Source: Methanotrichaceae archaeon
GTDB lineage: Archaea > Halobacteriota > Methanosarcinia > Methanotrichales > Methanotrichaceae
Reading direction: 5' to 3'
Assembly (NCBI GenBank): GCA_963813075.1
Contig: CAWEXU010000002.1
Span: forward strand, 1-13,653
Length of the DNA: 13,653 nucleotides
Shown here: one piece after another, positions 2 through 13,653 of the stretch
Layout: every line of letters starts with the position of its first letter
How positions within the stretch are numbered: position 1 is the stretch's first letter
Translations under genes and position numbers: made by a program
The notes under the pieces: generated by a model
What the model saw: only the letters and a program-made list of their open reading frames with translations
Told to the model about the DNA's origin: nothing
Databases searched by the model: none

Positions 2-2059
2 GACGCAGTGGTTCACGTCGGGACTCACGGCCTGGCCGAGTTTACAAAGGGAAAGGAGGTCGGCCTATCCAACGAGTGCTTTCCCGATCTGCTCATAGGC
101 AGCCTTCCCCATCTCTACTTCTACCAAGTGGTGAACACCTCGGAGGTTGTGATCGCTAAACGCAGGCTGTATGGGACGACCATAGGCTACAACTCTCCAC
201 CCTACACGACCTCGGACCTCTACAGGGATTATGCCGAGCTGGAGGATCTGATAGACGAGCACGGCCAGGCCCGGCTGCATGATCCATTGAGGATGAAGAG
301 GGTGGAGGAGAAGATTTTACAGAAGGCCTCCGAGCTTCACCTGAGGTCAGAGGATCTCGATTCTATCCATGCGGAGCTTTACGAGATGAAGCGCAGGATC
401 ATACCAAAAGGCTTGCACATCATCGGACAGAGGTACCAGGCCTCTGAACTGAAGAGCTTCATCGAGTTCATCCTGAGATACGACAGGGAAGGGGATGGAT
501 GCAGGTCCTTGAACCGAATACTGGCTGAGGCACGCGGGCTCGATTACGATGAAGTCTTGAAAGACAAGAGATGCTTTGTGAGCGATCTGGAGGAGATAGA
601 CCGAAAGGCATCGCATCTGGCCGGAATCAGCCTGGATGACTCTGCTGAGGCGGCGGTGCAGGCAAGCGGCCTTGCTCGCGCCCAAGCGGAGCAGCTCAAG
701 AAGACCCTGGACTTTGGGCTGCAGTTCCTGGAGATGTACTCGGCAAACGAAGGCGAGATAGAGAGCTTCCTGCAGGGCCTGAAGATGTCGTTCATCCCGG
801 CAGCATCCGGGGGCGACGTCATCAGAACGCCGCAGATCCTGCCGACAGGGCGCAACCTGACCCAGTTCGATCCAACCCGCCTGCCCACTCAGACGGCTGT
901 GGAGCGCGGCTCTGAGATCGCCGAGAATACGATCTCAGCATACCTGAAGAAGGAAGGGAGGTTTCCGGAGAGCACGGGTGTGATACTCTGGGGCTTCGAG
1001 ACCACCAAGACCGGGGGAGAGACCGTCGGCCAGATCCTCAGCTATCTGGGTGTCCGCCTTGTAAAGGATGCCGGTGCCTGGTCTCCTAGGCTTGATCTCG
1101 TGCCCCTGGAGGAGCTGGGAAGGCCGAGGATCGATGCTCTGGTGAACATCTGCGGCTTCTTCAGGGATATGTTCCCCAACGTAGTCCTCTTGCTGGATCA
1201 GGCCTTCAACCTCGCAGCCGGCCAGGATGACGAGCCCCTGGAGATGAACTTCGTGCGCAAGCATTCGCTGCAAAACCAAGAGAGACTGAACTGCATGGGC
1301 CTGGATGAGAGGACAGTGTGCAAGATGGCAAACGGCCGGATTTTTGGTCCCAAAGCAGGCGAGTACGGGACGAGGATGTTGCCACTGGTGGAGGACTCAG
1401 TCTGGAGGACTGAGGAGGAGCTATCCGAGGTTTTCATCCAGTCGATGGATCACCTCTATGCCGAGAATCTGCATGCCGTAAAAAGCGATGACATTTACCG
1501 CAGCAACCTGGCCAGGATCGATCTGGTCTCCCAGGTGAGGGATTCTCACGACCGGGAGATCATCGACCTTGATCACTACTATGAGTTCTTTGGCGGGCTA
1601 TCCAGAGCAGTTCAAAAGGAGCGGGGAAGGGCTCCTGAGATGCTCATCTCCGACACGACTGGAGAGGCAGTCCAGACCGAGGACGTGCAGGATGTGGTGG
1701 CACGGGGAGCCAGGACAAGGCTTCTCAATCCCAAATGGGCCGATGCGATGCTCGAGCATGACTTTCATGGGGCTCAGCAGGTGGCTGACAGGGTTGAGAA
1801 CATGCTAGGGCTTGCGGCCACAACTCATGCTGTGGAGAACTGGATCTGGTCTGAGATAGCCGGCCTGTACATCTTTGACAGAGAGATGCAAGAGAAGCTA
1901 TCCCGAAACAACTGTTATGCTGCGGCGGAGGTGGCCAAAAGGCTGCTGGAGGCGCAAAGGCGGGGTTACTGGCAGGCGACAGATGAGGAGATGCAGCAGT
2001 TGCGAGAAGCATCGATGGAGATGGAGGGAAGAATCGAGGAGATGACGGATGGGCGATGA
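2..2059 (+). CDS. CobN/magnesium chelatase H (ChlH/BchH-like) family large subunit, 5'-truncated by the window edge
   Basis: The frame is open from base 2 (DAVVHVGTHG...), so the GTG at 8 is internal. Family motifs present: HVGTHG..EF..GKEVGLS..CFPD, SE..IAKRR, LPTGRN, ELGRPRID, GFFRD.FP, RIFG...GEYG, D.DHYYEFFGG, RTRLLNPKW. GTHG/EF/SE..IAKRR look more ChlH/BchH-like than CobN-like (GKHG/EW/GEG.QAKRR). Confidence 0.93.
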   Translation, partial: DAVVHVGTHGLAEFTKGKEVGLSNECFPDLLIGSLPHLYFYQVVNTSEVVIAKRRLYGTTIGYNSPPYTTSDLYRDYAELEDLIDEHGQARLHDPLRMKRVEEKILQKASELHLRSEDLDSIHAELYEMKRRIIPKGLHIIGQRYQASELKSFIEFILRYDREGDGCRSLNRILAEARGLDYDEVLKDKRCFVSDLEEIDRKASHLAGISLDDSAEAAVQASGLARAQAEQLKKTLDFGLQFLEMYSANEGEIESFLQGLKMSFIPAASGGDVIRTPQILPTGRNLTQFDPTRLPTQTAVERGSEIAENTISAYLKKEGRFPESTGVILWGFETTKTGGETVGQILSYLGVRLVKDAGAWSPRLDLVPLEELGRPRIDALVNICGFFRDMFPNVVLLLDQAFNLAAGQDDEPLEMNFVRKHSLQNQERLNCMGLDERTVCKMANGRIFGPKAGEYGTRMLPLVEDSVWRTEEELSEVFIQSMDHLYAENLHAVKSDDIYRSNLARIDLVSQVRDSHDREIIDLDHYYEFFGGLSRAVQKERGRAPEMLISDTTGEAVQTEDVQDVVARGARTRLLNPKWADAMLEHDFHGAQQVADRVENMLGLAATTHAVENWIWSEIAGLYIFDREMQEKLSRNNCYAAAEVAKRLLEAQRRGYWQATDEEMQQLREASMEMEGRIEEMTDGR

Positions 2060-2284
2060 TTGATGAAACGATTCTGTGAAGAACGGGAAAAAAGAGAAAA
2101 ATCAGCAGGCTAAGCAGTTCCTGTCTGCCATGTACTGCAACTCTTGCCGTTCATATCTGCCATCTAAAGGTCAGATGCCTGGATCGGCATAGCCATAAGT
2201 GATGCACTTAGGAGCAACATGGCAATCATGCTGCAACAGCGGATCATGTTTTGTATACCTCCAATGTTTTAAGCAGCCGTATGG

Positions 2285-2300
2285 GCGATAAATTTATATG
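2285..2300 (+). promoter_or_regulatory. Putative archaeal BRE/TATA promoter for the transporter operon
   Basis: GCGATAAA followed by TTTATATG (2293-2300) in the AT-rich spacer about 110 nt before the permease start. An alternative TATA-like run, TTTTTAAA, lies at 2357-2364. Confidence 0.55.
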
Positions 2301-2331
2301 CTTAACGCTCCTTTTTTGCTAATGATTCGCA

Positions 2332-2353
2332 AATCAGTAATACTAATTGCTAA
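2332..2353. promoter_or_regulatory. Candidate operator, copy 1 (AATCAGTA-N8-TGCTAA)
   Basis: AATCAGTA atactaat TGCTAA. Identical arms and spacing recur at 12804-12825. The arms TCAGTA/TGCTAA form an imperfect inverted repeat. Confidence 0.5.
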
Positions 2354-2409
2354 ACATTTTTAAAATGAGGAATATGACAGAACAAGAAATGGTCCGATGG
2401 TGAACTCTC

Positions 2410-3492
2410 ATGGCAGGGTTGACAAAAAGGATGCGAATTGCAGAGCGTATAGGCCTTAATCAGGAATACGGTTTTTCAGAAATTCACAAGATGCTGATCC
2501 TCCTCGCCCTGTTTGCGTTGCTTGTTATCGCCGTGGGCGTGGCCATAACCTTTGGAGCTTACAACATCTCAGTCTCTGATGTCTACAGAATAGTGATGGC
2601 TCACATGATGCCATTCGGGGACATCTCTTCCGTCACCAAGCTGCATAACACCATCGTCTGGGAGCTGAGAATCCCCCGAGTCCTCCTGGCTGTGACCGTG
2701 GGCACTGCCCTGGCCACTGCAGGCGCAGTCTTTCAAGGATGCTTCCGAAATCCATTGGTAGAGCCGTATCTCCTCGGCATCTCCTCGGGAGCAGCCTTTG
2801 GTGCAGCCATGGGCATTGTCTTTTCCGACTTTCTCCTGTCCATCCAGCTCTCTGCCTTTATCTTTGGGTCCCTGGCGGTTGCCATGGCCTACTTCCTGGC
2901 CAGGGTTCGTAAGGAGACGCCCATAGTGACTCTGATCCTGGCCGGTGTGATCATCGGCTCTATCTTCTCTGCAATGGTCTCGATCCTCAAGTACGTAGCC
3001 ACAGATGCAGCCTTGAGGGAGATCGTCTTCTGGCTTATGGGCGGCTTCTACTATGCCACATGGAATGACGTCCATCTGCTCGTGCCCATAATAATCCCCA
3101 GTTTTCTGATCATGTGGGCTTTGGGCTGGAAGCTGAACATTCTATCCATGGGCGACGACGAGGCCAGAGCCCTGGGAGTCAACCCGGAGAAGTATAAGTT
3201 TGTCCTGATCACCCTGGCCACGCTTGTAACCTCCCTGGCAGTATCTACCGTGGGAATAATCGCCTGGGTGGGCCTGATGATGCCTCATGCCACGCGCATG
3301 ATGCTTGGCCCCGATCACCGCTATGTGATTCCGGCATCGGCCATGCTGGGGGGAGCTTATCTCCTGGTCTGTGATACCATGGCACGGACGCTTACGACTG
3401 CTGAGATCCCTGTGGGAATCATCACATCCATCCTTGGAGCGCCATACCTGTTCTATCTTCTCAGGACCAGAGGGAAGGCGATGCTGGGATGA
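2410..3492 (+). CDS. Iron-chelate/cobalamin ABC transporter permease (FecCD/BtuC family)
   Basis: Multiple hydrophobic helices. Motifs LRIPRVLLA, FRNPLVEPYLLGISSGA, GDDEARALG, IAWVGLMMPH, EIPVGIIT..LGAPY. GGTGA ribosome-binding site (RBS) at 2399-2403, 6 nt before the ATG. Confidence 0.95.
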   Translation: MAGLTKRMRIAERIGLNQEYGFSEIHKMLILLALFALLVIAVGVAITFGAYNISVSDVYRIVMAHMMPFGDISSVTKLHNTIVWELRIPRVLLAVTVGTALATAGAVFQGCFRNPLVEPYLLGISSGAAFGAAMGIVFSDFLLSIQLSAFIFGSLAVAMAYFLARVRKETPIVTLILAGVIIGSIFSAMVSILKYVATDAALREIVFWLMGGFYYATWNDVHLLVPIIIPSFLIMWALGWKLNILSMGDDEARALGVNPEKYKFVLITLATLVTSLAVSTVGIIAWVGLMMPHATRMMLGPDHRYVIPASAMLGGAYLLVCDTMARTLTTAEIPVGIITSILGAPYLFYLLRTRGKAMLG

Positions 3493-4304
3493 CGCCAATG
3501 CTCGAGGTCAAAGACCTTCACTTCAACTATGGAACTGCCCCAATACTCAAGGGCGTGTCTTTTGAGGTGAACGAGGGTGGACTTTGCGGCCTATTTGGCC
3601 CCAACGGCTGCGGGAAGACGACGCTCTTTAAGTGCTGCCTGAACTTCCTTAAATCACATCGTGGGTCGATAAGCATGGACGGAAAAGATGTCAAAAACCT
3701 CAGGGTTGAGGACATGGCAAAAATTGTGGCCTATGTGCCCCAGGAGCACAAGCCTCCGTTCCCTTATCTGGCCCGGGAGGTGGTTTTGATGGGCAGAACG
3801 CCACGGCTGAATGGATTCTTCGGTATCATCCGGGAGGATAAGATGAAGGCGGCCGAAGCCCTGGATCTCCTGGGGCTCACAGAGCTGGCTGACTATCCCT
3901 ATAATCAGCTCTCAGGAGGCCAGCGTCAGATGATATTGATGGCGAGGGCCATTGCCCAGGAGACCCCTCTTATGTTCCTGGATGAGCCGACGTCTGCGTT
4001 GGACTTCAGCAACCAGATACGCATCTGGAGGATAATGCGCCTGGTTGCGGAGAGGGGAGTGACTATTCTCGCATGCAGCCATGATCCAAACCACGTTAGC
4101 TGGTTTTGCGATAAGGTGGTGGTGATGAAAGACAATCGCATTCTCAGGGAGGGTTCACCTCACAACGTGATCACCGAGGATACGATGGATGAGATCTACC
4201 AGGACATGTGCTCTGTGAGGAACATCGGCGGCACAAAGATGGTGCTGCCCAGGGATGGGACGCTCAGAGATGGGACTAGGTGTCCTCCATATGGAATGGC
4301 TTGA
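3489..4304 (+). CDS. ABC transporter ATP-binding protein (FecE/BtuD/FhuC-like)
   Basis: Walker A GPNGCGKT, Q-loop YVPQ, signature LSGGQ, Walker B/D-loop MFLDEPTSALD, H-loop SHD. ATGA overlap with the permease stop. Confidence 0.96.
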   Translation: MTPMLEVKDLHFNYGTAPILKGVSFEVNEGGLCGLFGPNGCGKTTLFKCCLNFLKSHRGSISMDGKDVKNLRVEDMAKIVAYVPQEHKPPFPYLAREVVLMGRTPRLNGFFGIIREDKMKAAEALDLLGLTELADYPYNQLSGGQRQMILMARAIAQETPLMFLDEPTSALDFSNQIRIWRIMRLVAERGVTILACSHDPNHVSWFCDKVVVMKDNRILREGSPHNVITEDTMDEIYQDMCSVRNIGGTKMVLPRDGTLRDGTRCPPYGMA

Positions 4305-4378
4305 GTACGCTGAATTCGAAGGCAGGATGATGGAATAATCGCAACAATCGGTTGAATTGGATGTTTAGGAATGATGAG

Positions 4379-5668
4379 ATGATGTCTGGCAAGAAGATGT
4401 TTCTTTGTATCTCTATGGTTCTTTCCTTGATTGGCATTTGTGCGGCGGGTTATGAGCCTTTAGTGTATGGTGATGCCAACCAGGACGGCCAAATAGATGG
4501 GAATGATGTTGACTATGTTGCAGGCATAATTGGCAGCACAAAGGAGCGAACCAATCTGTCTGATGCCAATTACGACGGGAAAGTCGATGAGTCAGATATC
4601 CTCCAGATAGAAAGAATCATTGGAGGTAATCAAACGAATCTAACCCTGCTTGATATGGATGGCAGGTCGGTGACGATTCCACAGCCCGCAAACCGAGTCC
4701 TAGCTATCGGCTTCGGTTTCATCGAAAATACGATGTTCGCCTTAGGAGCAGAGGATAAAATAGTTGGCAGTGGTGGAGCAGTCCGTTCGAATTTGACTGC
4801 TGGCGTATTAAATCCAAAGCTGAATTCACTTCCCAGCGCGGGCTCCGCTGTTGAGGGAATAAACTATGAAACAATAGCGTCAGCGAATCCCGACATTGTG
4901 ATCGTCAGAAGAAATATCTATTTCCCGGAGCAGTGCGACAAAGCCGTGGAAATGATAGAAAAGCTGGACATACCTGTAATAGTATTAAAAGATCCAAATC
5001 ATTTCCATACATCAGATATCTCCACAATCTATCAAGAGATAGGACTTCTCGGACGGATATTCAATAAGGATGAGCCTGCACATAAATTGATAGATGCAAT
5101 GGATAAAAGCGTCTCATCTATTACAGAAAGAACGGAGAATATAGGAGAAAAGGATAAACCAAAGGTGCTGTTTTGCGGTCTGGGAAGCAATAGCTCCAGG
5201 GACAAAGGCGGAATTCTTGTTGTATGGGCAAAGGAATGCGCATCAACATTTGCAGATTTGCTCAATATCAAGAGCGCATATGATGGATCAGGAAGAAATT
5301 ATTTATCCGCAGAACATATATTGAATTTAGATCCTGATGTGATCATTCTTGAAACATCTGGTGGCGGATGGAATACAAGCCAGCTGTATGAAGAAGAATA
5401 TTATAAAAATCTGCAGGAATTGAAGGCCATAAAAGATCAGCGCGTATATTCTATTGGAAGATTAACATACTGTGGGGATATCCAGCTAGAGCTTCCGATA
5501 ATGCTGATGATCGAGGCAAAGGGTGCCTATCCTGAGAACTTTAAAGATATAAATATATCTGAATGGATTGAAAAGTATCTTATGGAAATATATACAGTTG
5601 ATAAAGATACTGCAAAGTCTCTGAAAAATGCACAAGGATTGGCCTGGATTGACAGATCTGGCTTCTAG
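4379..5668 (+). CDS. SBP1: type III ABC substrate-binding protein with N-terminal dockerin-like domain
   Basis: Signal peptide (MMSGKKMFLCISMVLSLIGICAA), two DANxDG repeats, then BtuF/FhuD-type motifs DMDGRSVTIP, NYETIASANPDIVI, EHILNLDPDVII, LKAIKDQRVY. ATG 4379/4382 is preferred over the TTG at 4352 because it places the basic and hydrophobic signal regions at the N-terminus. The exact start is uncertain. Confidence 0.88.
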   Translation: MMSGKKMFLCISMVLSLIGICAAGYEPLVYGDANQDGQIDGNDVDYVAGIIGSTKERTNLSDANYDGKVDESDILQIERIIGGNQTNLTLLDMDGRSVTIPQPANRVLAIGFGFIENTMFALGAEDKIVGSGGAVRSNLTAGVLNPKLNSLPSAGSAVEGINYETIASANPDIVIVRRNIYFPEQCDKAVEMIEKLDIPVIVLKDPNHFHTSDISTIYQEIGLLGRIFNKDEPAHKLIDAMDKSVSSITERTENIGEKDKPKVLFCGLGSNSSRDKGGILVVWAKECASTFADLLNIKSAYDGSGRNYLSAEHILNLDPDVIILETSGGGWNTSQLYEEEYYKNLQELKAIKDQRVYSIGRLTYCGDIQLELPIMLMIEAKGAYPENFKDINISEWIEKYLMEIYTVDKDTAKSLKNAQGLAWIDRSGF

Positions 5669-5672
5669 CTGT

Positions 5673-5735
5673 AGCCATCTTCGGGAGGGAGAAGGACTCG
5701 ATAGCGAGAACCTATTCCCTTCCAGAGTTATGGCT
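5673..5735 (+). other. Long imperfect intergenic stem-loop
   Basis: Nested pairings: AGCCAT(5673-78)/ATGGCT(5730-35), GGGAGGGA(5683-90)/TCCCTTCC(5716-23), AGG/CCT, and CTCG-atag-CGAG. There is no following U-tract. Confidence 0.65.
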
Positions 5736-5784
5736 TGTATGAAATAAAAAATCTCGATAATGAAACATTTGGAGGGAGACGACG

Positions 5785-6975
5785 TTGAACTTAATAAAAT
5801 CGTGGATGATTGTTGCTACATGTTTATGCCTGATTTCAGTAGCATCAAGCTCTTTTGAAAACAGAACTATAACAGATATGCGTGGCAAAGTGATCCAGTT
5901 GCCGGCTCATATTGAGAGAGTAGTCACCATAGATAATGGTCTTGTCGAAGGTGTTATGACAATACTGGGCGAATCCGATAAAATAGTGGGTTTGGGCTCA
6001 AAGTTTGGAGTAAGCTCTCAGACTTTCACCAGTGTCACATCTGGGAACTACTCATACGAGAACGGCATGAATCCCGTAAGATACCTCAATCCCAAGCTTG
6101 CGGATCTGCCTCTGGTCGCGGCTGAATCAACTGGAATCAACTATGAGACACTGGCAGGTCTTAAGCCGGATGTTATAATTATCAGAAGCGGATCTTGTGC
6201 TGCTTCTTGGGGAATAAATGAGGACGATCTGAAGAAGAATCTCGGACCGATCGAGAAGATGGGGATCCCGACTGTAGTCGTCAATGCACCCCCATGCTAT
6301 GACCATCCCAATCTCAGCACTATATCTGAGGAGATCAGAGTCATTGGGCAAGTATTCGGCAAGGAGGAACGAGCGGAGAAGCTCGCCGGCTATCTCGACG
6401 ACTGCGTCAAGACGATAAAGGACAGAACAGCAGGAGTTCAGGAGAAAGACAAGCCCAAGGTGCTGGCGTTGGGACTTGCTCCCCAGTCAAGGAGTGCAGG
6501 CGGAGCAGGCAATGTGCGAGGAGCAATCATCGCTTATTACATTGAGAATATTGCCAATGCCAACAATGCATATACTGCGATGAGATATGTCTCTGATTCA
6601 GTCATCTTAAGCGGTGAGCAGGTCTTTGCGCTGGACCCAGATATTATCATACTGCCGACATCATCAGGCTACCATCCGCCAAGCGAACTGTACAACGCTC
6701 CATACTATCAAAACCTCCAAGAGCTTAGGGCAGTCAAGAACAGATCTGTCTACGCGCTTGCTCTTACAGGCTCTAATTGCGATGCTTCACGATTAGAATA
6801 CCCGATTGATCTGATGATCATTGCCAAGGCCTGCTACCCGAATCGCTTCAATGACATCAAGGTAAATGAATGGGTGCTTGATTTTTACTCGGGACTTTAT
6901 GGTGTGGATAAAGAGACGGCCAAGAAGCTGCGCTCAGCCCAGTGGCTCAATTGGACAGTTGAGGAGAACTTCTAA
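5785..6975 (+). CDS. SBP2: type III ABC substrate-binding protein (Cys/GYHPP paralog group)
   Basis: TTG start 9 nt after GGAGG (5771-5775). Signal peptide present. Motifs TITDMRGK, NYETLAGLKPDVII, FGKEERAEKL, LRAVKNRSVY. Confidence 0.9.
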   Translation: MNLIKSWMIVATCLCLISVASSSFENRTITDMRGKVIQLPAHIERVVTIDNGLVEGVMTILGESDKIVGLGSKFGVSSQTFTSVTSGNYSYENGMNPVRYLNPKLADLPLVAAESTGINYETLAGLKPDVIIIRSGSCAASWGINEDDLKKNLGPIEKMGIPTVVVNAPPCYDHPNLSTISEEIRVIGQVFGKEERAEKLAGYLDDCVKTIKDRTAGVQEKDKPKVLALGLAPQSRSAGGAGNVRGAIIAYYIENIANANNAYTAMRYVSDSVILSGEQVFALDPDIIILPTSSGYHPPSELYNAPYYQNLQELRAVKNRSVYALALTGSNCDASRLEYPIDLMIIAKACYPNRFNDIKVNEWVLDFYSGLYGVDKETAKKLRSAQWLNWTVEENF

Positions 6976-6996
6976 AATGATTTGGGCGGCGAAATC

Positions 6997-8172
6997 ATGT
7001 CTAAATGCCTTAATCTCTGTATCCTTGCCATAGTCGGCATCTTTCTTTTGATTGCCACTTGTTGGGCAGCCGAGGAAACAAGAACCGTTGTAGACGGTCG
7101 CGGCGTGGCTGTGACCATCCCGGCACAGGTCGATCGTGTGGTTACAGTCTCTGCCGGAATCATTGAGGGCACGATGTATGTGTTGGGCGAGGCAGATAAA
7201 ATCGTAGCAGTCGGGTCGGTCTGCTCCCAGAAGGTCTCCAATTACACAATCACGACAGAGAATGGGACCCTCGATGGCGAGGGTGGCATGAATCCGGTGG
7301 CCTACCTCAGTCCTCGGCTGCAAAATCTCCCGGTGCTCGGGAGCGGTACGGATATGAACTTCGAGAAGCTTGCCGGGCTTGATCCTGACTTGGTTATCAT
7401 CCGTGCCTGCGGCTGCAATGTCGCTTCGATGGAAGATGAGAGCACGCAGAAGACGATAAGGACTATCGAAGCCCTCGGAATTCCTGTCGTTGTGCTCCAG
7501 GGTCCCACGTGCTTCGATAAGCCTAATCTCTCAACGATGTCCGATGAAATAAGGATTCTGGGGAGAGTCTTCGGAAAGGAGGAAAGGGCAGAAAAGCTGG
7601 CCGATTACCTCGAATCCCAGACAGAGGTGGTCTTTGAGAGGACGAAAGATATCCCCGACTCAGAGAAGCAGTCCGTTCTGATATTTGGAGCCTCTCCTAA
7701 CTCCAGGAAGGCTGGCGGAGCGGGCATGGTGAGGGGAACCGATACAATTGAGTCTTACTTTATCGAGGAGATCGTCCATGCGAAGAACGCCTTCCGGGAA
7801 ACAGGCAGACCTACTATCTCTGCGGAACAGCTCCTCTCTCTCAATCCTGATGCGATAGTGCTCGATACCGCCAACGGCTATCATCCGCCGGAAGAGCTCT
7901 ACTCAGCTCCCTACTACCAGAATGTCGGCGAGCTCTCGGCTGTTAAGAACCGCCGTGTTTATGCTCTACCCTGGACGTGCTGCAGCACCAAACGTCTCGA
8001 ATATCCTATTGAGGCAATGGTGATCGCCAAGGCAGCTTATCCCGATCGTTTTGACGATATCGATCTTGAGGAGTGGCTTGTTGACTTCTTCAAGAACGTA
8101 TATGATGTTGATAATGAGACGGCGAGAGCGTTAATATCGACTCAGTGGATGGACTGGTGCGTTAAAGAATGA
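6997..8172 (+). CDS. SBP3: type III ABC substrate-binding protein (Cys/GYHPP paralog group)
   Basis: ATG 6997 (MSKCLNLCILAIVGIFLLIATCWAA) is preferred to the TTG at 6982. Motifs TVVDGRGVAVTIP, NFEKLAGLDPDLVI, SAEQLLSLNPD, LSAVKNRRVY. Clear paralog of SBP2 and SBP5. Confidence 0.9.
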   Translation: MSKCLNLCILAIVGIFLLIATCWAAEETRTVVDGRGVAVTIPAQVDRVVTVSAGIIEGTMYVLGEADKIVAVGSVCSQKVSNYTITTENGTLDGEGGMNPVAYLSPRLQNLPVLGSGTDMNFEKLAGLDPDLVIIRACGCNVASMEDESTQKTIRTIEALGIPVVVLQGPTCFDKPNLSTMSDEIRILGRVFGKEERAEKLADYLESQTEVVFERTKDIPDSEKQSVLIFGASPNSRKAGGAGMVRGTDTIESYFIEEIVHAKNAFRETGRPTISAEQLLSLNPDAIVLDTANGYHPPEELYSAPYYQNVGELSAVKNRRVYALPWTCCSTKRLEYPIEAMVIAKAAYPDRFDDIDLEEWLVDFFKNVYDVDNETARALISTQWMDWCVKE

Positions 8173-8191
8173 ATTGAGCTTCGAATGAGGT

Positions 8192-9046
8192 ATGTTGATG
8201 CAATCGAATATGGATATTGACTGGAATTCTGCCTGGAAGGACCTCTACGAAAAGAACGCAGAGTGTCGAGGCAAAGGAGAATGCGCTTCGATCTGGGCCT
8301 CTCGAGATAGTGCCCGTGCGTTTTTGGCACAGTCACGGGAGAGGCCTGAGCGCATTCTTCAAGACATCGAGGGCCTGCCCATCAAGGCCGACTCTAAGGT
8401 GCTGGACATTGGCGCAGGTCCCGGCACTCTTGCCGTTCCCCTGGCCGCCCGTGTCGCCTCCGTGACTGCCGTCGAGCCTGCGGCGGGAATGGCGGAGGTG
8501 ATGAGCGAGCATGCCCTGGAAAAGGGTGTAACAAACCTTTCAATTGTTCGCAAACGCTGGGAGAATGTCGATTCTAAAAAAGACCTCGATGGTCCCTATG
8601 ATCTCGTCATCGCCCGGCATTCGCTCGGAATGCCGAATATCAGGGATGCGATAAAAGCGATGTGCGAAGCATCGTCAGAATGGGTCTATCTCTTCTGGTT
8701 TGCAGGGAGCACTGGATGGGAGAGGGCAATGATTGATCTCTGGCCTAAACTGCATGGCAGAGAATATCGTTCTGGTCCAAAGGCAGACATACTCTACAAC
8801 GTCCTCTACTCGATGGGAATCTATCCCAATGTTGAGACGGTGCAGATGGAGTACGCACGCAAGTTCCCTGATCTCAATGCCGCTTTAAAAGAGTTCAGGG
8901 AGCAGTACATGATATCATCCCCTGCCCAAGAGGAGATCCTGCGAGGGCATCTCCAAGAGAGCCTCTCGAAAACCAGCGAGGGCCTGGTGAATTCGATGAT
9001 GACGAATCAGGTAAGGCTCTGGTGGAGTGTAGACCGTTGTCGATGA
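8192..9046 (+). CDS. Class I SAM-dependent methyltransferase (MT1)
   Basis: Motif I VLDIGAGPGTLA, then VTAVEP and YDLVIA. No signal peptide. The true start may be ATG 8198, 6 nt after GAGGT. Confidence 0.9.
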   Translation: MLMQSNMDIDWNSAWKDLYEKNAECRGKGECASIWASRDSARAFLAQSRERPERILQDIEGLPIKADSKVLDIGAGPGTLAVPLAARVASVTAVEPAAGMAEVMSEHALEKGVTNLSIVRKRWENVDSKKDLDGPYDLVIARHSLGMPNIRDAIKAMCEASSEWVYLFWFAGSTGWERAMIDLWPKLHGREYRSGPKADILYNVLYSMGIYPNVETVQMEYARKFPDLNAALKEFREQYMISSPAQEEILRGHLQESLSKTSEGLVNSMMTNQVRLWWSVDRCR

Positions 9047-9176
9047 GAGATTTCGCGTTGTCCACAAGCCATCCTCGGGCTCTTTTATTGCGCCTGTGCC
9101 ATCCTGTGAGATGATGCCTGCGGTCATTGAGTTACTATCTCTCTCATATTTTTTAACATATATTATTACTTGTTGA

Positions 9177-9190
9177 GCAAGATTTATAAC
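9177..9190 (+). promoter_or_regulatory. Putative internal BRE/TATA promoter for SBP4-SBP5-MT2
   Basis: GCAAGA-TTTATAAC (TATA 9183-9190) in an AT-rich 167-nt spacer. It resembles GAAAGA-TTTAATAC at 12833-12846. A T-rich run (9149-9154) lies upstream. Confidence 0.55.
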
Positions 9191-9213
9191 CAGGTCTACA
9201 CGTCATTTCCTCC

Positions 9214-10455
9214 ATGTCAAGAAATAATCGGATCAAATCCAATAGAACGAAGACGGCAATTGGCATGGCGAGTTTTTATTTATTCTCCTTGGCTTTGGTT
9301 CTTGTGTTCGCAGGAGTTGCAGCATCTGAAGAGCATGGCAATGATCAGGCCAAAAAGAATATAACAGCAAACTTTTCGATGTGTGATGGCGATCTAAAGA
9401 CTGTCAAAGACGGCTTTGGAGAGAACGTTTCCCTATGCATGCCAATAGAGCGTATTGTGAGCCCTTGGTGCACCAATAATGAGCTATTGAAAGTAATTGG
9501 GGCATCCGATAAAATAGTGGCCGTGGATTCCGGCATGACTGGTGTAAGTACTGCTTTGTTTCCGGAATTCAAGGATCTCCCAGATTGCGGTTCATGGGTA
9601 GAACCAGATTTTGAGACGATCTTGAGTCTTAAACCTGATCTATATATCCCCTGGACTCAGATACCGTCCCGACTATCTGTTAATACGACGGGTGCATCAC
9701 TGTATGGAATCCAGAGAAAGAGATTTCTCGAAGAACAGCTTCCCGGAGTATCCATTCTATGCATAGATAACAACGAGTACCTCGGATGGAAAAATTTCCT
9801 GAATGAAACAAGGATGTTGGGGGAGGTATTAGACCGACAGGAGAAAGCCAATGAGTTCATTGATTTCTATACGGATTGCATGGCTCCCATCATAGAGGGC
9901 ACAAAAAGCCTTTCAGAAAATGAAAAGCCACGAGTATGGATTACGTCTCTATTCTCCACAGGTGGCAAGGTTACGACACAGCCTCGTGCCTATCCATTGT
10001 TTGAACCTGTAGATTTGGCCGGGGGAGATAACATTGCGTCTGAATTGCCTGGCGACGGCAGACAGGTGGATATAGAATGGATAATCAAGCAAAATCCGGA
10101 GTATATCTTTATACAAATATGGGCGGCTGGCAATAAGAAATCGCCCTATGATTCTGATTATCCCTTATCGATCGCAAAAGAACAGGTTGAAGAGATCCTG
10201 AAGATGCCGCAGCTCGCTCAGGTAGATGCCGTAAAGAACAAGAGGGTCTATGTCATACAGTATTCACACTTCACAAAAGGACCTTCCAGAGCTATTGCTA
10301 CAGCTTACCTGGCAAAACTGCTTCATCCTGATTTATTCGTGAGCTTGGATCCGATAAAGATGCATCAGGAGTACGTAGACCGCTTCTTGAAGATCAACTT
10401 CAATATAACTGAGAATAGGGCCAATTTCATTTACCCCTATTTGGAGGATCTATGA
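9214..10455 (+). CDS. SBP4: type III ABC substrate-binding protein (second subfamily)
   Basis: Basic n-region plus hydrophobic signal (…FSLALVLVFAGVAA). Motifs TVKDGFGENV, DCGSWVEPDFETILSLKPDL, DIEWIIKQNPEYI, VDAVKNKRVY, LAKLLHPDLF. Alternative start at ATG 9265. Confidence 0.9.
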   Translation: MSRNNRIKSNRTKTAIGMASFYLFSLALVLVFAGVAASEEHGNDQAKKNITANFSMCDGDLKTVKDGFGENVSLCMPIERIVSPWCTNNELLKVIGASDKIVAVDSGMTGVSTALFPEFKDLPDCGSWVEPDFETILSLKPDLYIPWTQIPSRLSVNTTGASLYGIQRKRFLEEQLPGVSILCIDNNEYLGWKNFLNETRMLGEVLDRQEKANEFIDFYTDCMAPIIEGTKSLSENEKPRVWITSLFSTGGKVTTQPRAYPLFEPVDLAGGDNIASELPGDGRQVDIEWIIKQNPEYIFIQIWAAGNKKSPYDSDYPLSIAKEQVEEILKMPQLAQVDAVKNKRVYVIQYSHFTKGPSRAIATAYLAKLLHPDLFVSLDPIKMHQEYVDRFLKINFNITENRANFIYPYLEDL

Positions 10456-11660
10456 ATTGGAGATCTGTTGTTAGAGGATGTCTGATGTTGTTTTCCATTG
10501 CGTGCATGATTGGATGCAGCAGTGCTGCGGCGGCTGCTCAATCTGGAGACGGCACCAGCAAGATAATCACTGATATGCGTGGGGCAGAGGTCTCAGTCCC
10601 TCAGGACCCTCAGAGGATTGTTGTGATGGATGATGGAACGGTCGAAAGCATGATGGTGATCTTCGGCGTGTCAGATAGGATTGTCGGCCTTCCCAGAACG
10701 CCGAAGAACTATACCTACAACTTTACCAGCGTGATAACGAACGAGACCTATTGGTATAGAGGGGGTAGAGGCGTTTCTCTCGTGCTTTGCCCCGATCTTG
10801 CCAAGGCGACCGTTGTAGGGCGAAATGCACCAAACTACGAGACTCTTGCCTCACTATCTCCTGATCTTGTTATTCTCAACTCGGGATCATGCAGCTTCCC
10901 AGATTGGAAAAAAGACGAGAAATCGGAAAAGGTCATCGAGATGATCGAGAAGATGGGAATTCCAGTCGTTGTGATAGAAGCGCCTGAGTGCAGCGCCAAC
11001 CCTGACCTGGAAAACCTCTACAAAGAGATATCTATTCTTGGAGAGATATTCGGAAAGGAGGACAAGGCAAATCAGGTCGTCTCCTTCTTGCGAGAGCAGG
11101 TCGCCTTCATTGAGGATAGAACCAATGGCGTACCTGCTAAGGATCAGCCTTCCGTTCTATTCTTCGGACTCTCTTCGACTGATATTAAAAAGGGCGGTGT
11201 CGGGAATGTGAAGGGTAAGGATACTCCAGAGGACTTCTTCCTTCATGAGATTATCCACGCAAACAATGCGTACTCTGATTCGGGAAGTCCAACGGTCTCC
11301 GCAGAGCAGGTCCTGGCTCTGGATCCTGATGTGATCCTGCTTCCCACTTCTAATGGATATCATCCACCGAAGGAGCTCTATGAGTGTGCGCCATTCCAGA
11401 GTCTCTCAGAGCTGTCTGCAGTTAAGAGCCATCGGGTGTACTCATTGCCCTGGACTCCGAGCAGATGTGCAACCCGTCCCGAGTTTCCAATCGATCTGAT
11501 GATTGCAGCAAAGGCTGCTTATCCGGATAAGTTCTCAGACATTATGGTTAACGATTGGGTACTTGACTTTTATGCCGGCCTTTATGGCGTGGACAAGGAG
11601 ACCGCTCAGACACTCAGGACAGCTCAGTGGCTCGATTGGACTGTCGAGGATGATTTCTGA
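10452..11660 (+). CDS. SBP5: type III ABC substrate-binding protein (Cys/GYHPP paralog group)
   Basis: ATGA overlap with SBP4. Signal peptide with a possible lipobox (MIGC). Motifs IITDMRGAEV, NYETLASLSPDLVI, SAEQVLALDPDVI. The C-terminus WVLDFY.GLYGVDKETA..LR.AQWL.WTVE..F is shared with SBP2. Confidence 0.9.
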   Translation: MNWRSVVRGCLMLFSIACMIGCSSAAAAAQSGDGTSKIITDMRGAEVSVPQDPQRIVVMDDGTVESMMVIFGVSDRIVGLPRTPKNYTYNFTSVITNETYWYRGGRGVSLVLCPDLAKATVVGRNAPNYETLASLSPDLVILNSGSCSFPDWKKDEKSEKVIEMIEKMGIPVVVIEAPECSANPDLENLYKEISILGEIFGKEDKANQVVSFLREQVAFIEDRTNGVPAKDQPSVLFFGLSSTDIKKGGVGNVKGKDTPEDFFLHEIIHANNAYSDSGSPTVSAEQVLALDPDVILLPTSNGYHPPKELYECAPFQSLSELSAVKSHRVYSLPWTPSRCATRPEFPIDLMIAAKAAYPDKFSDIMVNDWVLDFYAGLYGVDKETAQTLRTAQWLDWTVEDDF

Positions 11661-11696
11661 AAACGAATGATTTCAAGTGAATGAGGAATATTACAC

Positions 11697-12731
11697 ATGC
11701 TGGAAAACATTAAGCAGGACTTCGAGCAGGTTCTGGAATCGGATAAGGACTCCAGCGATCTCCGCAGTCTGTCTATATCTCTGGATACCTTTTATGCCCT
11801 TTCCTCAGCCCTTGAGGTGGGAATATTTCAGGGTTTGGAGGAGCCCAAAAGCTCCTCAGAGCTAGCCGAGACTCTGGGCCTTCATGCAGGAATCGCTGAG
11901 AAGCTCTGCAAGGCCCTCGCATCGAGAGGATATCTGTCCAGAGAGGGCGGCAATTATGCCCTCTCCGATCAGGCCAGAACCTTTCTCACAGAATCCTCTC
12001 CATTCTATCAAGGTAGTCTCATAAAATTAATGAAGAGAACGCGGGAGCAGCGGTGGAGCAGCCTGGCCAGAGCTCTCAAAGAAGGCCCGATCGCCGCTCC
12101 CTCAGGATCTCAGGTCTTCGATGAGTTCTTCGCTCTGGCTATGGCCGAGGGTGCAGTTGGCGGATCGCTGCAAAGGACGATAAAAGCATTGAAGAGAATG
12201 CCAGAGTTTCATAAAGCCAGAAGATGCCTCGACCTGGGAGGCAGTCATGGGCTCTACTCACTGGCATTTTCCAGGTCGAATCCGGAACTTGAGGTAGTCC
12301 TCTTCGATCTTCCAAAAGTAATAGAGGGCGCTGCTAAAAAAGTAGTGTCTGACTCGGAGCGAATTGTCACAACGGCAGGAGATTTTAAGAGAGATGATCT
12401 GGGCAAGGATTACGATTTTGTCTTTGCCTCAGATGTGCTCTACAGGGAGGGGAAATTGCTCCGTCCTTTGCTGACCAGGATCAGGGACAGCCTGAAACAC
12501 GACGGGCTGCTGATATGCAAGCACTTTCATATCGACGACCTCGAGATTGACTCATCGGCTGTTCTCTTTGATCTGATGTTCTCCATATCCGGGACAGGTA
12601 GTGTCGTTTATTCGTCGGCTGATTTCTGCCGCCTCCTGGAGTCGGCAGGATTCTCAATAGTTCAGGTGGAAGATATCAGCAGCCCTGTAAGTCCCAGCAA
12701 GATCATAACGGCAAGAAAGCTCGGGGATTGA
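11697..12731 (+). CDS. O-methyltransferase-type SAM methyltransferase with N-terminal dimerisation/winged-helix domain (MT2)
   Basis: N-terminal ALEVGIFQGL..PKSSSELAETLG...LASRGYL, then CLDLGGSHG, LFDLPKV, AGDF, YDFVFASDVL. This is the Methyltransf_2-like architecture. GAGG RBS at 11683-11686. Confidence 0.9.
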   Translation: MLENIKQDFEQVLESDKDSSDLRSLSISLDTFYALSSALEVGIFQGLEEPKSSSELAETLGLHAGIAEKLCKALASRGYLSREGGNYALSDQARTFLTESSPFYQGSLIKLMKRTREQRWSSLARALKEGPIAAPSGSQVFDEFFALAMAEGAVGGSLQRTIKALKRMPEFHKARRCLDLGGSHGLYSLAFSRSNPELEVVLFDLPKVIEGAAKKVVSDSERIVTTAGDFKRDDLGKDYDFVFASDVLYREGKLLRPLLTRIRDSLKHDGLLICKHFHIDDLEIDSSAVLFDLMFSISGTGSVVYSSADFCRLLESAGFSIVQVEDISSPVSPSKIITARKLGD

Positions 12732-12785
12732 AGCTTTGCAGCAGATATATCCGGCTGCAAAATTCAATCATTTTATCTATTTTTT
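12726..12785 (+). terminator. Stem-loop plus T-tract terminator after MT2
   Basis: GATTGAA(12726-32)/TTCAATC(12763-69) encloses TTTGCAGC(12735-42)/GCTGCAAA(12754-61), followed by TTTTATCTATTTTTT. Confidence 0.7.
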
Positions 12786-12803
12786 AAATATGGCTTATTT
12801 TGC

Positions 12804-12825
12804 AATCAGTAGCAATTGATGCTAA
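12804..12825. promoter_or_regulatory. Candidate operator, copy 2 (AATCAGTA-N8-TGCTAA)
   Basis: AATCAGTA gcaattga TGCTAA. All 14 arm positions are identical to 2332-2353. It ends 13 nt upstream of a TATA-like box. Confidence 0.5.
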
Positions 12826-12832
12826 TATAATA

Positions 12833-12846
12833 GAAAGATTTAATAC
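12833..12846 (+). promoter_or_regulatory. Putative BRE/TATA promoter for SBP6
   Basis: GAAAGA-TTTAATAC downstream of the terminator and about 130 nt before the SBP6 ATG. Confidence 0.55.
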
Positions 12847-12973
12847 CAATAACAATGTTCAGGTGTGTTGTGTAATTCATGCGGATGGCAATATGCATGC
12901 ATTCGAAGTCTTCACAGCAAGAACGACGAAAATGCGGTATGGTGTTGGGAAATAAAATGGGGAGTTGCGTCAA

Positions 12974-13653
12974 ATGAAAAGTACTATTTTAATATCAGTG
13001 ATCTTATTGGCTCTGATTCCCGTTTCTAATGCATCCGGCTGGACCCTGGGGATCTTTGGAAACGCCAATTTGGACGATACCATTGATGAGGCTGATATTG
13101 GCTATGTTGAAGGAATACTGGCCGGAAAAAATAATTCGACCGATTTCGCCGATGCAAATCACGACGGTCTGGTGGACGAAAAGGACATTGAGCAGATAAG
13201 ATCTATCATAAAGGGCGAAGAGAAGGAGCTTACCTTGGTGGATACGGCAGACCGAGTGGTCACCGTTAAGAAGCCTCTGAAGACCCTGGTGGGCTCAAAT
13301 ATTGCCGTTATGAAATCACTGGGGATGGATATTAAGGATATGGTTATCGGAAGATACAACCAGGTCGATGTGGAGGCCTTCCCTGAGCTTTCCGATGATC
13401 TTCTCGATGTAGGATCTGGATGGTCCCCGGACATTGAAAAGATCCTCACGCTAAATCCAGATGCTGTGTTCCTTTATCCACCCGGATTTACCTACGATAC
13501 AAAGCCAACATTGCAGTCTCTTGAGTCATCGGGAATGATCGTTCTCTGCTTCAAGCTGCAGACTCCGAAAATTCACCAGGAAGAGGTAACCAAGCTGGGA
13601 TACATATTCAACAAGAGAAAAGAGGCAGAGAAATATCTCGACTGGTATGAGAA
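12974..13653 (+). CDS. SBP6: type III ABC substrate-binding protein with N-terminal dockerin-like domain, 3'-truncated (absent from the ORF track)
   Basis: Hand translation: MKSTILISVILLALIPVSNASGWTLGIFGNANLDDTIDEADIGYVEGILAGKNNSTDFADANHDGLVDEKDIEQIRSIIKGEEKELTLVDTADRVVTVKKP...DVGSGWSPDIEKILTLNPDAVF...LGYIFNKRKEAEKYLDWYE, open to the window end. GGAG RBS at 12961-12964. Confidence 0.9.
   Translation, partial: MKSTILISVILLALIPVSNASGWTLGIFGNANLDDTIDEADIGYVEGILAGKNNSTDFADANHDGLVDEKDIEQIRSIIKGEEKELTLVDTADRVVTVKKPLKTLVGSNIAVMKSLGMDIKDMVIGRYNQVDVEAFPELSDDLLDVGSGWSPDIEKILTLNPDAVFLYPPGFTYDTKPTLQSLESSGMIVLCFKLQTPKIHQEEVTKLGYIFNKRKEAEKYLDWYE

Follow-up and report, generated by a model that had tools for sequence, protein, structure and literature searches.

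Class I chelatase large subunits linked to uptake genes have been described in several bacteria. HmuS/BtuS heme dechelatases of Bacteroidota hmu operons, members of the same superfamily as the protein studied here, are linked to such genes (PMC12583661, PMC6460266), and PMC12583661 places the HmuS catalytic site at His538 and His1209/Glu1212; BtuS-type salvage was predicted in 2003, as cited in PMC6460266. Corrinoid operon-2 of Dehalobacter restrictus (PMC4285132) and TDE_0746-0750 of Treponema denticola (PMC12724145) combine FepBCD/BtuCDE-type ATP-binding cassette (ABC) transporters with CobN-like proteins and Mg-chelatase subunits; corrinoid starvation induces the Dehalobacter operon, which has a cobalamin riboswitch, 346-fold. 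It is also reported that BtuS-annotated proteins of M. barkeri vary with the Fe/S source (PMC10846266), that euryarchaeotes and firmicutes carry ChlH-like genes of unknown role (PMC3595025), that CobN-like proteins were once proposed to insert nickel, and that nickel can limit methanogen growth (PMC3087415); how archaea use their HmuS, CobN, and ChlH homologues was called unclear in 2025 (PMC12583661). Here we analyze such a homologue in the window, which is the entire 13,653-base contig C2 of G000, a Methanothrix-like genome of 2.7 Mb that is 83% complete; both contig ends are assembly breaks. (L, G, and C numbers denote the loci compared, the genomes compared, and contigs of G000.) The 11 confirmed genes, all on the plus strand (Table 1), form two abutting modules rather than one import-and-edit operon. 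Module 1 contains a permease, an ATPase, six class III solute-binding proteins (SBPs), and two S-adenosylmethionine (SAM) methyltransferases (MT1 and MT2), and module 2 is the chelatase. The reading we favor, tentatively and at somewhat less than an even chance, is that these are separately promoted modules of a metal-scavenging island in which the array likely imports nickel chelates under predicted NikR repression and the orphan chelatase likely releases Ni or Co from an imported planar tetrapyrrole.

The window chelatase belongs to class I by its PF02514 match (730 bits against a cut-off of 24.5) and its HVGTHG motif, an HxGTHG element at residues 5 to 10 of the fragment, and it is 88 to 93% identical to proteins from Methanothrix and Methanotrichaceae records. 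It represents what we call type A, an orphan class I chelatase large subunit of about 1250 amino acids (aa) in relatives, which we compared over 80 loci. Its domain V reads DLDHYYEFFGG, and LDHY[YF]E[YF]FGG occurs in 80 of the 93 chelatase open reading frames (ORFs) of these loci, a count that is partly by construction since the motif was itself one of six search patterns. The aligned segments are SLDHVYEFMGG in HmuS, S/TxDHYFDTLGG in BchH, and DSDDY[YF]Q in CobN. The type A His is common to HmuS and BchH, while the Glu is common to HmuS only, BchH having Asp, and these two residues align with HmuS His1209 and Glu1212. Type A matches both pocket histidines of HmuS and the His/Glu dyad of its LSLDHxxEFMGG segment. 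In a FastTree phylogeny with few references, type A is its own clade (support of 100), separate both from HmuS with type C, the membrane-type methanogen paralogues (support of 99), and from CobN with two further paralogue types (support of 99); the placement of BchH relative to type A, with only two BchH rows, is an unresolved three-way split. Full-length type A proteins pass the BchH model TIGR02025 (cut-off of 829 bits) at 963 bits for L012, a 93%-identical relative, and at 891 and 1040 bits for others, although this model is loose and type B also passes it (850 against 829). They score below all CobN model cut-offs (for TIGR02257, 646 against 822 in L012), and their best hidden Markov model and best PDB matches are of the BchH/ChlH type. 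Their N termini are hydrophilic by eye, with no membrane anchor seen. Based on these sequence comparisons, we conclude that type A is a predicted cytoplasmic chelatase that is neither CobN nor HmuS and that its active-site motif is, as aligned, of the porphyrin type.

Compared with HmuS (1360 to 1500 aa), type A is shorter and forms a separate clade, has no N-terminal anchor that we could see, lacks DUF2162/MotA neighbors, is often accompanied by ChlI/ChlD, and shows nickel- or B12-type instead of iron control. HmuS is further characterized by a Met79/His254 heme site, a methionine-rich insertion, and NADH-dependent conversion of heme to protoporphyrin IX; the N-terminal half of the type A protein falls outside the window. 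BchH/ChlH, which is paired with ChlI/ChlD, shares the domain V His with type A, and ChlD or ChlI neighbors are frequent at type A loci; type A differs in its nonphototrophic hosts, its Glu in place of Asp after the His, and its separate clade, and neither bch genes nor an hmuTUV-type cluster is among the recurrent neighbors of the 80 loci. CobN of the aerobic CobNST system shares the PF02514 fold family and an HxGxHG motif but carries a D-S/G-D-D motif in domain V, which type A lacks, and has no second His; type A hosts carry cbiD of the anaerobic pathway. The window has no cbiZ, unlike the Dehalobacter operon, and the excerpts on the Dehalobacter and Treponema systems mention no chelatase assay, SBP array, or NikR site. 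The parallel that the initial annotation drew with CobN-like HmuS proteins belongs to a different gene, since the HmuS-side paralogue of G000 lies on C13 (L116, G000:C13:81368-88565). That paralogue adjoins DUF2162 and MotA/ExbB genes near the mcr genes. Its coding sequence is broken into two ORFs that overlap, and its motif is a CobN-like DNDD that lacks the second His. Another cytoplasmic type of chelatase stands in tandem with type A at several loci (Table 1) and replaces the His with a Cys-rich domain V motif, GCCCYFxxHGG, which is a possible metal or Fe-S site. Among 399 scored genomes in the class of G073, only G073 itself had a type A-level match, and four others had paralogues at 32 to 34%.

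Type A neighborhoods bear out the proposed link between the chelatase and metal-chelate importers: a class III SBP is present at 56 of the 80 loci, a FecCD permease at 34, ChlD or ChlI at 29 (within 10 kb), and CbiK at 7. Three importer types stand beside type A, namely ABC transporters, TonB-dependent receptors, and energy-coupling factor (ECF) transporters, the last two in several Gram-negative loci. A ferredoxin-like gene lies upstream of the chelatase in 5 loci, and in L083 cbiK lies within the chelatase operon. In Bacillota, for which all counts rest on 8 loci, a cobalamin riboswitch is present in 7; it heads an SBP-permease-ATPase-chelatase run in 5 loci and precedes another unit in 2, while the eighth operon begins outside its locus, and L071 has a 380-bp gap 5' of the chelatase. 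We found cbiD in 37 of the 50 carrier genomes tested, which cover 50 of the 80 loci and include all 8 Bacillota. No ChlD-type gene was found in G000 or in G011 (75% complete). Several type A loci have further neighbors. Nitrogenase-like NifH/D/K triplets lie inside SBP-chelatase islands at L092:14939-18568, L097:10692-14375, and L218:14835-18430, and the nitrogenase-like island of G022 has extra copies of cbiC, cbiZ, and cbiK. In Jordarchaeia (L041, L056, and L079), type A and chlD adjoin genes for a corrinoid protein, an MttB-family methyltransferase, and a methionine-synthase-like protein. At L070:1-4124 and L078:1-4133, downstream of chlI-chlD, a cobalamin riboswitch leads genes for small secreted proteins and a large surface protein, which in L070 has leucine-rich repeats.

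The initial annotation treated the window as one co-oriented cluster, and all genes do lie on the plus strand; the co-orientation of chelatase and array is nevertheless secondary, with a decayed inverted SBP gene and a separate promoter lying between them. The 350-bp gap 3' of the chelatase holds a minus-strand SBP remnant, consisting of the first 27 codons and a few degraded ones, and the same gene is intact and inverted at this place in L012, L013, and L020. Beside the remnant are a conserved TATA-like element and an inverted repeat, giving the permease a promoter of its own. No array lies downstream of the chelatase in L015 to L018 (76 to 77% identity). Array and chelatase share a contig in four of six genomes with window-type MT1 and are on different contigs in G009 and G496. 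In G492 they lie within an island of ~66 kb with ~20 SBPs, NikA-type systems, DUF4198, and nikR, and in G516 a stretch of ~16 kb that includes nikA and nikM separates the chelatase from nikR. The G492 island (L217 to L219, G492:C88:36000-102000) includes ~20 class III SBPs, several permeases, two NikA-type systems, and a terminal nikR.

The promoters of the array carry the signal that points to nickel. From the permease and SBP6 sites we derived a 28-bp inverted repeat, KTRYTA-N16-TARYAM, allowing at most one mismatch, and it is present in three of the four promoter-sized gaps of the window, at 2316, 9132, and 12819. Markov shuffles put the chance of the repeat at 0.012 to 0.05 per gap, and the genome background is 28 of 1190 promoter regions; among AT-rich regions it is 22 of 449. 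Its halves are conserved and its spacer variable in L011, L012, L014, and L020. Elsewhere in G000 the repeat lies between nikR and a NikA-type SBP gene, before a DUF4198-nikM operon, and twice before the DUF4198 gene of C11, so that all three nickel-uptake promoters examined in this genome bear it. Over 28 Methanotrichaceae loci, the N16 repeat marks 19 of the 63 promoters of metal-uptake genes, compared with 6 of the 75 other promoters. The published NikR site of Escherichia coli is GTATGA-N16-TCATAC (PMC7055735) and that of deltaproteobacteria is GTGTTAC-N13/14-GTAACAC (PMC545781). Membership in a NikR regulon is indicated by a predicted inverted repeat of 27 to 28 bp with NikR-type halves that is common to nik promoters. 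The repeat shares the architecture of the published sites, and the window sites are likely NikR operators. The presence of the repeat in three of four gaps and at nikR/nikA and nikM-type promoters makes nickel-chelate uptake likely. At L117 to L146, ~40 bases 5' of nikR, both nikR paralogues have a different element, a highly conserved compact near-palindrome, TATTACTAAGTA[AG]CA, that overlaps the TATA box and is probably an autoregulatory site with half-sites one helical turn apart.

Several observations weigh against this assignment. The motif was built from the permease and SBP6 sites, which leaves the SBP4 site and the three nickel promoters as the independent occurrences, and a shuffle result of 3 in 200 is circular for the same reason, the motif being derived from two window sites. 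The repeat is short and AT-rich, and the metal-uptake promoters have an AT content of 0.64 compared with 0.56 in the comparison set. Other spacers score alike (N13 at 17 of 63 against 3 of 75 others; N19 at 17 of 63 against 6 of 75). The N16 form is present at just 7 of 30 nikR promoters and at 5 of 36 stretches upstream of DUF4198 genes, where 1.04 are expected, though many of these stretches fall inside operons and related genomes do not count independently. Across the family, the heads of chelatase operons show no enrichment, with N16 at 8 of 55 compared with 1 to 7 at other spacers.

The SBPs and permease of the window also separate the array from the chelatase. Profile matches to PF01497 SBPs, a PF01032 permease, and an ABC ATPase place the array among class III SBP-dependent importers of the FecBCDE/BtuFCD type and agree with the annotated inventory of a chelatase large subunit, one FecCD permease, one ABC ATPase, and at least six SBPs. 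In a FastTree phylogeny of 117 SBPs of at least 300 aa plus SBP6, the usual partner SBP of the chelatase is a 19-member clade (support of 100), 14 members of which lie directly upstream of the chelatase, and none of the six window SBPs falls in this clade; in the window the partner would sit past the left end of the contig. In L012 the upstream partner SBP occupies 7077-8270. SBP1, SBP2, SBP3, and SBP5 belong to a 20-member clade found only in the window, L011 to L014, and L020. The window permease is 89 to 98% identical to permeases of 4 loci and 32 to 44% identical to the other 33 rows, and most archaeal permease rows are nearer (47 to 85%) to the other permease of G000, on C30. A small gene 5' of the partner SBP resembles a carboxypeptidase-regulatory-like beta domain and is uninformative. 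For the Bacillota partner SBP, IsdE is the best NCBIfam model, below its cut-off; we rejected a heme-binding label since siderophore binders also come first in PDB profile searches.

Cobamides and heme, two of the ligands that the initial annotation named for type III SBPs, fit the window SBPs poorly. Their scores are below family cut-offs for BtuF (at most 29 bits against 234) and IsdE (at most 42 against 299), and the BtuF match of SBP3 is weak (E of about 2e-3). By sequence and by an AlphaFold model (predicted local distance difference test score of 82, built from 9 sequences), the nearest relatives of SBP3 are uncharacterized SBPs, MolA, YiuA, and Helicobacter pylori CeuE with Ni-His; heme binders come further down, and the rows listed include no BtuF (all at 14 to 25% identity). 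SBP3 is a better match to small metal-chelate binders than to BtuF or heme binders, and the regulatory signal of the array points to nickel, not to cobamide or heme. Helicobacter CeuE-FecDE, which takes up Ni-(His)2, and Haemophilus MolABC have the same SBP fold subgroup and FecCD-type core as the array, which differs in being archaeal, in having six SBPs per core, and in being only 18 to 20% identical. In SBP2, SBP3, and SBP5, Cys residues and a YHPP motif recur in subfamily loops and are candidates for disulfides or a soft-metal site. SBP1 has a dockerin-like N-terminal domain (PF00404; window positions 4352 to 4620), and the start of SBP6 (12965 to 13230) looks similar. In Alkanophaga loci (L026 and L029), cohesin-domain genes adjoin SBPs. 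These dockerin and cohesin features are a hint of surface scaffolds displaying many SBPs.

MT1 and MT2, annotated as unrelated, are both class I SAM methyltransferases, and BLAST does not match one to the other. Of 59 genomes of the genus, 42 have MT1 homologues, 8 have MT2, and 16 have the chelatase clade. We inspected 1.5 kb around 29 MT1 loci (the 30 best of the matches listed, minus the window's own) and found CooC at 11, Nik genes at 7, a class III SBP at 6, and no chelatase; at the same radius, all 10 MT2 loci have an uptake gene and one has a chelatase. Both are recurrent members of metal-uptake operons and are not tied to the chelatase, which speaks against the proposal that they edit its ligand. 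No close solved relative of MT1 was found.

Under the mechanism we favor, NikR would leave the three promoters at low nickel, and the six divergent SBPs would feed different Ni complexes through the single permease-ATPase. Both methyltransferases would likely modify a chelator or organic ligand handled by the importer rather than the chelatase substrate. The chelatase would be supplied by an upstream SBP of its own, grip the ring with two histidines as HmuS does, and set the metal free, with a ChlI/ChlD motor or a reductant assisting where either exists. Methanogens would use the liberated metal for F430 and Ni enzymes, and the Bacillota whose operon is headed by a cobalamin riboswitch would use it for CbiK and corrin synthesis. 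The dedicated importers, the HmuS-type dyad, and the ferredoxin-like genes lead us to prefer metal release to ATP-driven insertion. Cobalt gain is most plausible in hosts that make their own corrin, switch the operon on at B12 shortage, and co-encode cbiK, while the Methanothrix islands point to nickel. On the other side, BchH shares the domain V His (with Asp for Glu) and inserts metal, the ChlD/ChlI neighbors fit insertion equally well, and the 16 bacterial loci from outside Bacillota, of which several are short, yielded no cobalamin riboswitch. A close competitor, though a less likely one, is that the same two modules exist but the chelatase, together with ChlI/ChlD, serves as a high-affinity reserve that uses ATP to insert scarce Ni or Co into sirohydrochlorin, the branch ring of F430 and anaerobic B12, with the importers supplying metal as a chelate. 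A single substrate would then account for nickel control in methanogens and B12 control in Bacillota, and the BchH model scores, the ChlD or ChlI genes at 29 loci, and cbiD in most carrier genomes and all 8 Bacillota agree with it. The lack of a ChlD-type gene in G000 and G011, at their stated completeness, does not, cbiK in the L083 operon would make type A redundant, and the HmuS-type Glu and the ferredoxin-like genes suit removal better.

We consider it improbable that the cargo of the array is iron-siderophores or several metal complexes unrelated to each other (Fe, Mo/W, or Co), that the repeat is a general metal-regulator site or chance, and that the chelatase is a heme-iron dechelatase sharing the island by position. 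Among the best solved relatives of the SBPs are Fe-siderophore binders (YiuA) and MolA, which binds molybdate; the best model for the Bacillota partner SBP, if below cut-off, is that of the heme binder IsdE; and repeat matches also precede a probable tungstate-binding gene and a Fur-like gene (identities read from sequence). Yet the repeat is at every nickel-uptake promoter examined in G000, and riboswitch control in Bacillota would be senseless for iron supply. Least probable of all is the single import-then-edit unit of the initial annotation, in which cobamides, heme, or F430 brought in by the six SBPs would be remodeled by the chelatase together with the two methyltransferases. The four genomes with array and chelatase on one contig fit such a unit, as does the Dehalobacter operon, which is induced by corrinoid starvation and joins an ABC transporter, cbiZ, CobN, and Mg-chelatase subunits, and with 2 FecCD permeases for 11 SBPs in G000, sharing is likely. 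This reading sits poorly with the separate promoter of the array, the placement of its SBPs and permease away from the usual partners of the chelatase (the permease clade is in just 4 of the loci with a permease), the different contigs in G009 and G496, the wide occurrence of MT1 without chelatase, and the weak BtuF scores. A far-reaching extension of the release mechanism, which we regard as quite unlikely, is that type A constitutes, by function, a fourth branch of class I chelatases. It would be a cytoplasmic enzyme that in methanogens, controlled by NikR, extracts Ni from F430-like or other Ni-tetrapyrroles brought into the cell and in Bacillota, controlled by a riboswitch, extracts Co from Co-tetrapyrroles, while an array of as many as about 20 SBPs would sample the Ni chelates present in anoxic habitats.

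Table 1. Coordinates of features in the window and of tandem Cys-rich chelatases in other loci
Feature	Position	Strand	Remarks
Chelatase, type A, C-terminal 685 aa	2..2059	+	PF02514, E 5e-219; 5'-truncated by contig end
Decayed 5' remnant of inverted SBP gene	2140..2247	-	Stop after 27 codons; intact in L012, L013, L020
TATA-like element	2288..2299		Conserved across five aligned permease promoters
Candidate NikR-type operator TTGCTA-N16-TAATAC	2316..2343		Halves kept, spacer varies in four relatives
FecCD/BtuC-family permease	2410..3492	+	Clade confined to closest relatives
ABC ATPase, FecE/BtuD type	3489..4304	+	Profile match
SBP1, class III	4352..5668	+	PF01497; N-terminal dockerin-like domain
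SBP2, class III	5785..6975	+	Cys/His-bearing subfamily with SBP3 and SBP5 (42-47% identical)
SBP3, class III	6982..8172	+	Model nearest MolA, TM0189, YiuA, and H. pylori CeuE folds
MT1, class I SAM methyltransferase	8192..9046	+	Family common beside metal-uptake genes
Candidate NikR-type operator TTACTA-N16-TAACAT	9132..9159		Halves identical in L012
SBP4, class III	9214..10455	+	YiuA-like by sequence
SBP5, class III	10452..11660	+	PF01497
MT2, O-methyltransferase-fold SAM methyltransferase	11697..12731	+	Has dimerization domain
Candidate NikR-type operator ATGCTA-N16-TAATAC	12819..12846		TTGCTA-N16-TAATAC in G511
SBP6, class III	12965..13653	+	Cut by contig end; 26.5 bits as ORF, just under 27.5 cut-off
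Tandem Cys-rich chelatase	L022:12238-15975, L024, L026, L029, L030, L035, L038, L061, L074, L075		

G000 has 11 class III SBP matches over cut-off, 2 FecCD permeases, the second chelatase on C13, cbiD, and two nikR genes. Six of the 11 SBP matches fall in these 13.6 kb of 2.7 Mb, a clustering far beyond chance. As annotated, no corrin-ring biosynthesis gene is among the 11 window genes, cbiD of G000 being elsewhere in the genome. An Rfam scan of the window, L012, and L013 gave no match. The 13-kb contig C11 (L115) has four more class III SBPs, a DUF4198 gene, two ABC exporter-type genes, and the same repeat, and it is possibly a continuation of the window island.

A literature search that reached few subscription papers found no account of the type A motif or of a NikR-linked SBP array in Methanothrix, and the excerpts of PMC9227772, PMC13474568, PMC2667541, and PMC8351635 contain nothing specific to either, though datasets EV3/EV4 of PMC12583661 may already separate the clade. 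The analysis sets apart a single chelatase clade that has its own diagnostic motif and a partner SBP and for which there are two hints of regulation, a B12 riboswitch in Bacillota and NikR-type sites in Methanothrix islands. For type A, the question of what archaea do with HmuS, CobN, and ChlH homologues is narrowed to release or insertion of Ni or Co, and a nickel-chelate uptake route is proposed for Methanothrix.

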